From Octopus vulgaris (taxonomy: Eukaryota): DNA of 64,000 nucleotides. Under the pieces are notes generated by a model. It saw nothing but the letters and a program-made list of their open reading frames with translations, did no database searches and was not told the DNA's origin. The stretch is from NCBI GenBank assembly GCA_951406725.2, contig OX597815.1, positions 81,902,001-81,966,000 on the forward strand, given 5' to 3'. This document shows, in pieces, positions 47,930 to 48,179 of this stretch. Within the stretch, counting starts at the first letter, position 1. Each line of letters opens with the position of its first letter. The translations under genes and the position numbers were made by a program.

Positions 47930-48179
47930 TGTATACTGTCAACTTAACGTGACAATCCCATAAAGGGAATCACACCACCGCTATTTAGCCCTAGGAAGCA
48001 TCAACGCTTCCTGTCGGCCTTGACACATTTCCTGTGTTCTTATGTTTACAAAGGGGAGACAAGCACCCCCATCCAGCTAAGCCTGCATCCAGAGACATGT
48101 TTCTGAGTCTTTGCTCATCATCAGTCTGGAGTAGCATGACTTGATAGCTGAAGATACCTGTCTAGACTTTGTAAACATA
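47930..48179 (-). mobile_element. Small structured HHR-bearing element, structural homolog of the 35.6-36.2 kb unit
   Basis: 139-nt hairpin closed by TATGTTTACAAAG/CTTTGTAAACATA (48041-48053 and 48167-48179) plus three downstream hairpins. Confidence 0.7.
48088..48130 (-). ncRNA. Type I hammerhead ribozyme, canonical core, apparently intact
   Basis: Minus strand TCCAGA-CTGATGA-TGAG-CAAAGA-CTCA-GAAAC-AT-GTC^-TCTGGA. Confidence 0.9.

Follow-up and report, generated by a model that had tools for sequence, protein, structure and literature searches.

The element on the minus strand at 48 kb of the 64,000-nt Octopus vulgaris stretch analysed here (the window) is one copy of a high-copy clade of hammerhead-bearing elements in which a covarying structured RNA module adjoins the ribozyme. 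The clade very probably belongs to the non-LTR retrozymes, an already known class, and the folded module is apparently the new part, well supported as a structure and with a function that is a proposal. We give a probability of about 0.6 to the reading that the fold acts as a binding and internal start scaffold for a Penelope-type reverse transcriptase (RT)/endonuclease supplied in trans. An earlier note on this DNA had described the 48 kb element and another at 35.9 kb as sister elements that suggest an RNA family. They are no isolated pair, and the family is not new in kind: both elements, together with a copy at 20.0 kb, are members of one high-copy non-LTR retrozyme clade.

The window copy (47924-48232, minus) is a solo, 5'-truncated subfamily B retrozyme that represents about 296 nt of the 354-355 nt unit, as delimited by homologues 89-97% identical over 48219-47921 and by a tandem trimer with a 354-355 nt unit at locus L022. 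It starts just past the unit's end site 2 and stops at 47924, which is 3' end site 1. Sequence comparison and, for the upstream copy, a repeat search revealed a flanking 12-bp target-site duplication (TSD; upstream copy 48233-48244, downstream copy 47912-47923, minus), and comparison with the family unit revealed a 17-nt inverted 5' piece (48216-48232, plus) that is the reverse complement of end-site-2 sequence. From there the minus strand carries hairpin H6 (48187-48208), a 139-nt rod that extends stem I and holds the ribozyme at its tip (48041-48179, arms 48178-48167 and 48053-48042; MFE fold and motif check), the type I hammerhead itself (48085-48135, motif span 48130-48088), hairpin H1 (48022-48038), H2 with an outer 4-bp helix, an internal loop and an inner 7-bp hairpin AGGAAGC/GCTTCCT (47987-48019), the 5' strand of a long-range helix H3 (47973-47981), hairpin H3a (TCCC/GGGA, 47956-47968), and hairpin H3b (47936-47955), which lies 12 nt upstream of 3' end site 1. 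The sequence GGGCTAAATAGCGG is located at 47991-47978 (minus).

All literal motifs reported by the earlier note were found at 48179-47956 (minus), with their counterparts at 35855-36084 (plus), and single-sequence MFE folding of each element returned the 139-nt rod, H1, H2 and the small hairpin, as had been claimed. Some details needed correction. H1 (AACACA..TGTGTC) is a hairpin, but its first pair is broken in the window copy only, the family sequence being GACACA. The GCGG motif is present, but it is the start of H3, whose partner strand is absent from the window copy and would lie past its 3' end. It is because of this truncation that the long-range helix and three further hairpins had been missed. 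Being shorter than one unit, with a single ribozyme and no H3 partner strand, the window copy is likely inert. The idea that it has been exapted by the host as a regulatory RNA could draw on its intact ribozyme core, but is hardly credible for an ordinary truncated copy with a TSD and private mismatches that is 89-97% identical to many dispersed copies.

At 35.9 kb a subfamily A element is inserted in (TA)n (35499-36172, plus), as identified by sequence, repeats and genome copies. It consists of an inverted 5' piece (35499-35622), a partial unit (35618-35809) and a full 363-nt unit (35810-36172) with a rod of 135-137 nt (35855-35989, plus) and a hammerhead at 35897-35946. Its core reads TTGAAAA, a U3-A8 variant, and not CTGATGA. 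Subfamily A copies elsewhere in the genome are 99% identical to it. Directly left of its (TA)n there is a small MITE-like element with inverted arms of about 39-65 nt (35200-35460). The 20.0 kb copy (19975-20325, plus; nhmmer E 1.8e-23, alignment, and covariance model (CM) E 4.7e-17) belongs to subfamily Q, an older member of the clade with the same module and a hammerhead near 20112-20170; used as a query it gave 2,925 first-look genome candidates, with copies 83-89% identical. The proposal that the 48 kb and 35.9 kb elements are divergent in sequence and conserved in structure is correct as to structure, but their sequences are also homologous, at 57% identity over aligned columns; blastn between them detects the 3' tail only (E 1e-4). 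Their downstream regions align with a score of 66.5, compared to 30.5 ± 6.5 for dinucleotide shuffles, none of which scored as high in 1,000, the opposite of the outcome that the earlier note had named as its refutation.

The abundance of the clade in the microsatellite-rich, 2.8-Gb host genome is consistent across searches. First-look candidates ranged from 1,527 to 2,949 per subfamily query, the highest number being that of the window copy, for which the best 40 of 2,949 were 89-97% identical. A pattern for the shared ribozyme had 2,634 exact matches in the genome and none in reversed controls, a complementary pattern had 107 vs 2, and a third pattern for other stem II types had 111 vs 5. 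Units of 354-364 nt are non-coding, arranged head-to-tail and without an ORF; arrays of at least two units were present in 10/79 loci, with up to five units among the matches listed. Copies are dispersed, and the LTR/PBS/PPT layout is absent from the locus maps. A tree was made from 75 copies in fetched loci and 17 subfamily consensuses were built, each from no more than 25 copies (a single copy for O and A2, two for K and P), leaving out six loci of other hammerhead families (L161, L165, L167, L169, L172, L183), truncated or duplicate copies, and the unassigned L163 and L179. There are at least 17 subfamilies, the main ones being 48-75% identical (A-B 57%, B-C 75%, B-M 50%, A-M 48%), and copies within the young subfamilies A, C, and M are 98-99% identical. 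Contigs from 4 of 22 listed sequencing runs, whose RNA nature is presumed and not recorded, cover the unit, some of them extending into flanking DNA; strand, ends and circles are unreadable there.

By motif and covariation, each unit carries a canonical type I hammerhead (139/146 stem cells paired across subfamilies). A Rfam Hammerhead_1 match had been expected, but the Rfam search gave no match at gathering threshold in the whole window and only chance matches near both elements (E 0.5-5). The window hammerhead has a 6-bp stem I followed by the GC-UAC/U-GC loop, a C3-G8 core, a 4-bp stem II with a CAAAGA loop, and a palindromic CAUG loop III, and its cut site is predicted between 48094 and 48093. 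In A3 and M, loop II reads exactly CAAATA. The core switches between C3-G8 and U3-A8 from subfamily to subfamily, a covariation reported for the ribozymes of Penelope-like elements (PLEs), and most subfamilies have a palindromic loop III (CAUG, CUAG, CGCG, CACGUG, CUCGAG), a property that has been tied to dimeric cleavage (both in the available text of PMC4209133). Other hammerhead sequences were seen in passing. A weak match in the window (60797-60850, plus; CTGATGA core, 4-bp stem I and poor stem II) is possibly a minimal PLE ribozyme, and a minisatellite at C21:20645354-20645557 has hammerhead cores head-to-tail with 42-nt spacing. An older type I hammerhead family of about 270 nt (L129, L130, L131, L143, L145, L152 and others) has an H6-like hairpin upstream and, downstream, no clear match to the module.

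When real monomers of subfamilies A, B, and C are opened where the ribozyme would cut, they are predicted to fold alike, the ribozyme closing a rod that is joined by a multiloop. The predicted order of the multiloop is H1, H2, the long-range H3 enclosing one or two hairpins between strands about 75 nt apart, and then H4, H5, and H6. The module is thus larger than first described: most of the helices already proposed stand, and H3, H3b, H4, H5, and H6 are added to them. Circular MFE z-scores were -4.8 to -13.9 in 8/8 consensuses, with sense more stable than antisense in all eight, and the same circular folding predicts a highly self-paired unit in which the hammerhead is left free (8/8).

Covariation bears out the central claim of the earlier note, that a covarying structured module adjoins the ribozyme. 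Helices (55 pairs) were taken from B and mapped on sequence-only MAFFT alignments of the 17 consensuses, and in the null each 3' partner was replaced by a column that carries the identical base in B and has a comparable number of parsimony changes; some bias remains in the following figures, as the other subfamilies had been viewed before the helices were fixed. For the four helices initially described, 11/15 double-sided changes were paired vs 5.0 ± 1.4 in the null. For the complete set, 720/819 cells were paired (88% vs 78 ± 2%) and 25/35 double-sided changes stayed paired vs 13.8 ± 2.7 (p = 0.001 in three MAFFT modes, the other two giving 25/35 and 24/33). Subfamily A alone had 12/13 double changes paired vs 3.6 expected, and Q, which was added later, and resampled M alone had 11/16 vs 4.8 ± 1.7. 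In 18 real copies, including a row labelled A4 that is a B/C-like neighbour, 78.5% of cells were paired compared to 74.2 ± 0.6% when shuffled and 37-46% in slid controls, with 62 double-change cells vs 27.6 ± 5.3 for a shuffle that ignores relatedness. Run on the consensuses, RNAalifold recovered H1, H2, H3b, H6 and the ribozyme stems and missed H3 and the rod; run on the 18 raw copies, it found 3 pairs only, H1 being mis-registered in that alignment.

Support differs among helices. H1, obtained from consensus folding, and H2 together had 9/10 double changes paired vs 3.1 ± 1.1, and this pair and H3 are each supported separately (H3, also seen in monomer folds, 95/106 cells, 90% vs 70%). H6 is conserved in the clade (109/122 cells, 89% vs 78%). 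The rod reached p = 0.001 for percentage paired in the 17 consensuses and was unsupported in Q and M alone. H3b contains a UA:7/CG:7 pair and has a whole-helix p of 0.05-0.08; H3b, H4, H5, and H6 show no individual significance for double changes over the 17 consensuses, and M and Q have lost H5. The last hairpin of the original description, H3a, is where the covariation claim failed: it is 69% paired vs 66% in the null (p = 0.40), absent in C, C2, K, M, and O, and hence optional in the clade.

These data bear on whether the fold might be inherited from an ancestral PLE pseudo-LTR (pLTR), with hairpin-templated mutation in the course of reverse transcription or DNA repair supplying the compensation and no present selection on RNA structure. 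Subfamilies do share ancestry in the tree, transition bias eases G-C to A-U double changes, and H3a comes and goes. However, a null that preserves base, tree and per-column change count is still exceeded, H3 joins distant strands with hairpins between them, G-U intermediates occur (the module has only a slight excess of G-U over A-C, 34 vs 22 cells), and young subfamilies A, C, and M all keep the fold. We regard neutral inheritance as improbable. The covariation shows that the structure is under selection; what it is selected for is a separate question. The module may also predate the 17 subfamilies, since the downstream region of a more distant hammerhead family (L148:1269-1432, minus; also L151 and L154) matches the module covariance model (L148, E 3.7e-13).

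Insertion signatures were mapped in 79 loci of subfamilies A, B, and C, the top matches to near-full-length queries, which favour long copies and do not thereby fix the end position. Two sites 54-63 nt apart, both inside the fold, account for 113/131 3' ends. After the cut site they lie at 175-177 and 235-238 nt in A, 170-175 and 219-234 nt in B, and 178-179 and 234-237 nt in C; subfamily M has recurrent 3' ends 41 nt apart. End site 1 sits within the loop closed by H3, and priming there would therefore be internal to the folded domain. An inverted 5' piece is present in 46/79 loci, (TA)n follows 42/47 A ends, 11/42 B ends and 37/42 C ends, and TSDs of 8-13 bp occur in 6/28 B loci vs 3/300 controls. 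Of the 89 5' starts in A and C, only 4 lie 5 nt or less from the cut site, where about 2.7 would be expected. This lack of a pile-up means that the main template is something other than a cut linear monomer, either an uncut multimer or a circle. Units of one locus differ almost as much as units of separate loci (A, 0.94% vs 1.23%; C, 1.43 vs 1.98; M, 2.47 vs 3.24; B, 4.33 vs 7.56), and most variants private to a locus sit in a single unit (245, vs 22 that are shared).

The fold could instead be kept for survival of the RNA, through ribozyme insulation, end ligation and nuclease protection, with priming by short AT-rich microhomology in an element of the same class. The cut ends meet in the rod, whole units show the high self-pairing reported for retrozyme circRNAs (PMC7229834, available parts), and both 3' ends coincide with TAT/ATAT-like sequence that matches the target. 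General stability, however, needs no identical helix order across 48-57% identity, and other AT-rich stretches of the unit are unused as ends. We consider this a minor possibility. The guess that the module might be an RT-recognition signal gains circumstantial support from the fixed 3' ends within the fold.

The clade shows the features of PLE-mobilised elements, namely two fixed 3' ends, 5' truncation with inversion, an AT/microsatellite target and intact EN+ PLE ORFs in the genome, and it fits the non-LTR retrozymes, which are non-autonomous Penelope-like elements. A partial tandem, an inverted piece and a 30-40 bp tail are PLE hallmarks (PMC8557442). In addition, a PLE protein requires RNA located 3' of its hammerhead and has two internal initiation sites that define the 'tail', and ribozyme cleavage is dispensable for PLE RT in vitro (PMC11167929). 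The retrozyme is not itself an autonomous PLE, as its head-to-tail units of about 355 nt contain no RT/GIY-YIG ORF. A Naiad-type SECIS, considered from PMC8557442, was dropped for lack of an ORF and a Rfam match.

A GIY-YIG search gave 6,136 candidates in the genome. Of 150 matches listed, 16 fall in 781-aa frames that combine RT, a Cx4Cx2C linker and GIY-YIG, in a family that would be of Neptune/Nematis type according to the description available in PMC8557442. Its hammerhead is minimal and of the U3-A8 kind, and it shows (TA)n insertion and two 3' ends (23 vs 6), the first only about 70 nt after the hammerhead. Young examples with many intact 781-aa RT/GIY-YIG frames (L116:1278-6200 and L117:1880-5860, minus) carry an optional tail of about 36-40 nt with a 12-bp palindrome, and in L116 a separate upstream 359-aa frame. 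By age and target it is the best helper candidate, but it shares neither module nor tail sequence with the retrozymes (tail resemblance not significant, p 0.12-0.65 for 7 families), and other PLE families are also in the genome. Across 40 PLE loci (30 of the 150 matches listed and 10 longer stretches, out of 6,136 candidates), searches of the 3' regions by blastn, nhmmer and the covariance model matched the module only in separate neighbouring insertions, and no pLTR homologue of the retrozyme was found in those loci. L120, L124, L151, L144, L166, L034, and L258 were discarded as autonomous partners, the PLE ORF and the retrozyme being separate insertions in them. The window itself contains a decayed PLE reverse-transcriptase fragment (23249-23709, minus; tblastn E 1.5e-9). 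It also contains 184-bp tandem repeats at 9118-9605 and 25473-25838, which we take to resemble an octopus tRNA-derived SINE.

The scaffold reading that we favour can be written as a sequence of steps. Tandem copies would be transcribed, and paired hammerheads with palindromic loop III would cut the multimers to unit length, after which host ligase would circularise the units, both as in known retrozymes. The unit, whose covariation is documented above, is predicted to fold into the rod and the multiloop H1-H2-H3(H3b)-H4-H5-H6. A PLE protein would presumably bind this fold and nick (TA)n or AT-rich DNA, and cDNA would be primed at one of the two observed end sites, 170-179 or 219-238 nt 3' of the cut. 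Synthesis through the ribozyme junction would account for the observed copies longer than one unit, and an early stop for those with a 5' inversion. More tentatively, and with some doubt on our part, the H1-H2-H3-H3b-H4-H6 multiloop on its rod might be an ancient recognition domain made of structure only, by which a coding-free circular RNA captures a sequence-unrelated Penelope RT and sets two priming sites. If true, the domain would serve a telomerase-related RT as a telomerase-RNA-like scaffold, and no cis-element for the mobility of animal retrozymes would have been defined before it. The octopus insertions carry PLE tail, inversion and target signatures, and so bear on how animal retrozymes move. 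Variation across the 17 subfamilies provides a ready secondary-structure model with compensatory pairs. With these signatures, this model and intact PLE ORFs in the same genome, the proposed hijacking is directly testable in vitro, and the RNA features that a telomerase-like RT recognises could be defined.

Sm-alpha of Schistosoma and newt satellite 2 have a 6-bp stem I with a UAC bulge, a CAAAUA-like loop II, tandem units of about 330 nt and an internal promoter of tRNA or snRNA type. The octopus clade resembles them, as they are generally described and not by sequence comparison, in stem I bulge, loop II and tandem units. The module could by analogy be a DNA-level internal promoter of that type, its pairing being a tRNA relic. 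A transcription signal must exist somewhere, and 4 of 8 consensuses examined contain a stretch that resembles an A box with one mismatch. However, a B-box-like match occurs in 1 of the same 8, ARAGORN at relaxed threshold was negative in 16/17 consensuses (with one antisense match in G2), and paired positions change together where a promoter would conserve sequence. The promoter explanation is thus very unlikely. A tRNA-derived SINE was rejected on the same ARAGORN result and because no A and B box pair was found in the 8 of 17 consensuses scanned, which also sets the clade apart from Sm-alpha and newt satellite 2.

Published work already covers non-LTR retrozymes and the proposal that they derive from PLEs (PMC7229834; bioRxiv 10.64898/2026.07.22.740005), the PLE helper being proposed from co-occurrence and pLTR phylogeny and the mechanism being still to be worked out, as far as the available parts of these papers go. 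Those parts do not mention cephalopods. The words hammerhead, ribozyme and retrozyme are absent from the main text of a 2026 octopus repeat annotation (PMC13282606), and a search of the open literature found no paper that describes a covarying module in retrozymes or deals with retrozymes of cephalopods. Repbase, subscription journals or supplements may hold these families.

With EN+ PLEs such as Neptune/Nematis and Poseidon PAc (PMC8557442; PMC11167929; PMC4209133, available parts) the octopus clade shares the partial tandem, the inverted 5'-truncated piece, the optional 3' tail, AT/(TA)n targeting and a hammerhead, located there in the pLTR and including the U3-A8 core variant. It differs from them in having no ORF, a canonical instead of minimal hammerhead, tails of 41-63 nt instead of 30-40, and ends 170-238 nt from the cut site. 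The non-autonomous Chlamys PLEs, such as MRC1, are also non-coding derivatives with head-to-tail copies and microsatellite targets, but have 3' sequence in common with autonomous partners and mostly lack hammerheads (PMC8557442, available text). The closest likeness is to the metazoan non-LTR retrozymes, which likewise have a canonical type I hammerhead, non-coding units of about 170-400 nt (350-390 bp in a mussel family), monomers to short tandem arrays, high self-pairing and co-occurring PLEs (PMC7229834; bioRxiv 10.64898/2026.07.22.740005). In Xenopus, 21/57 retrozyme families' matches showed pLTR homology according to the accessible preprint text (bioRxiv 10.64898/2026.07.22.740005); for the octopus clade no pLTR homologue was found in the 40 PLE loci. 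The covarying multibranch module, the dual fixed 3' ends, the 5' inversions and the TSDs, which the available parts of PMC7229834 and bioRxiv 10.64898/2026.07.22.740005 do not describe, are all present in the octopus clade.
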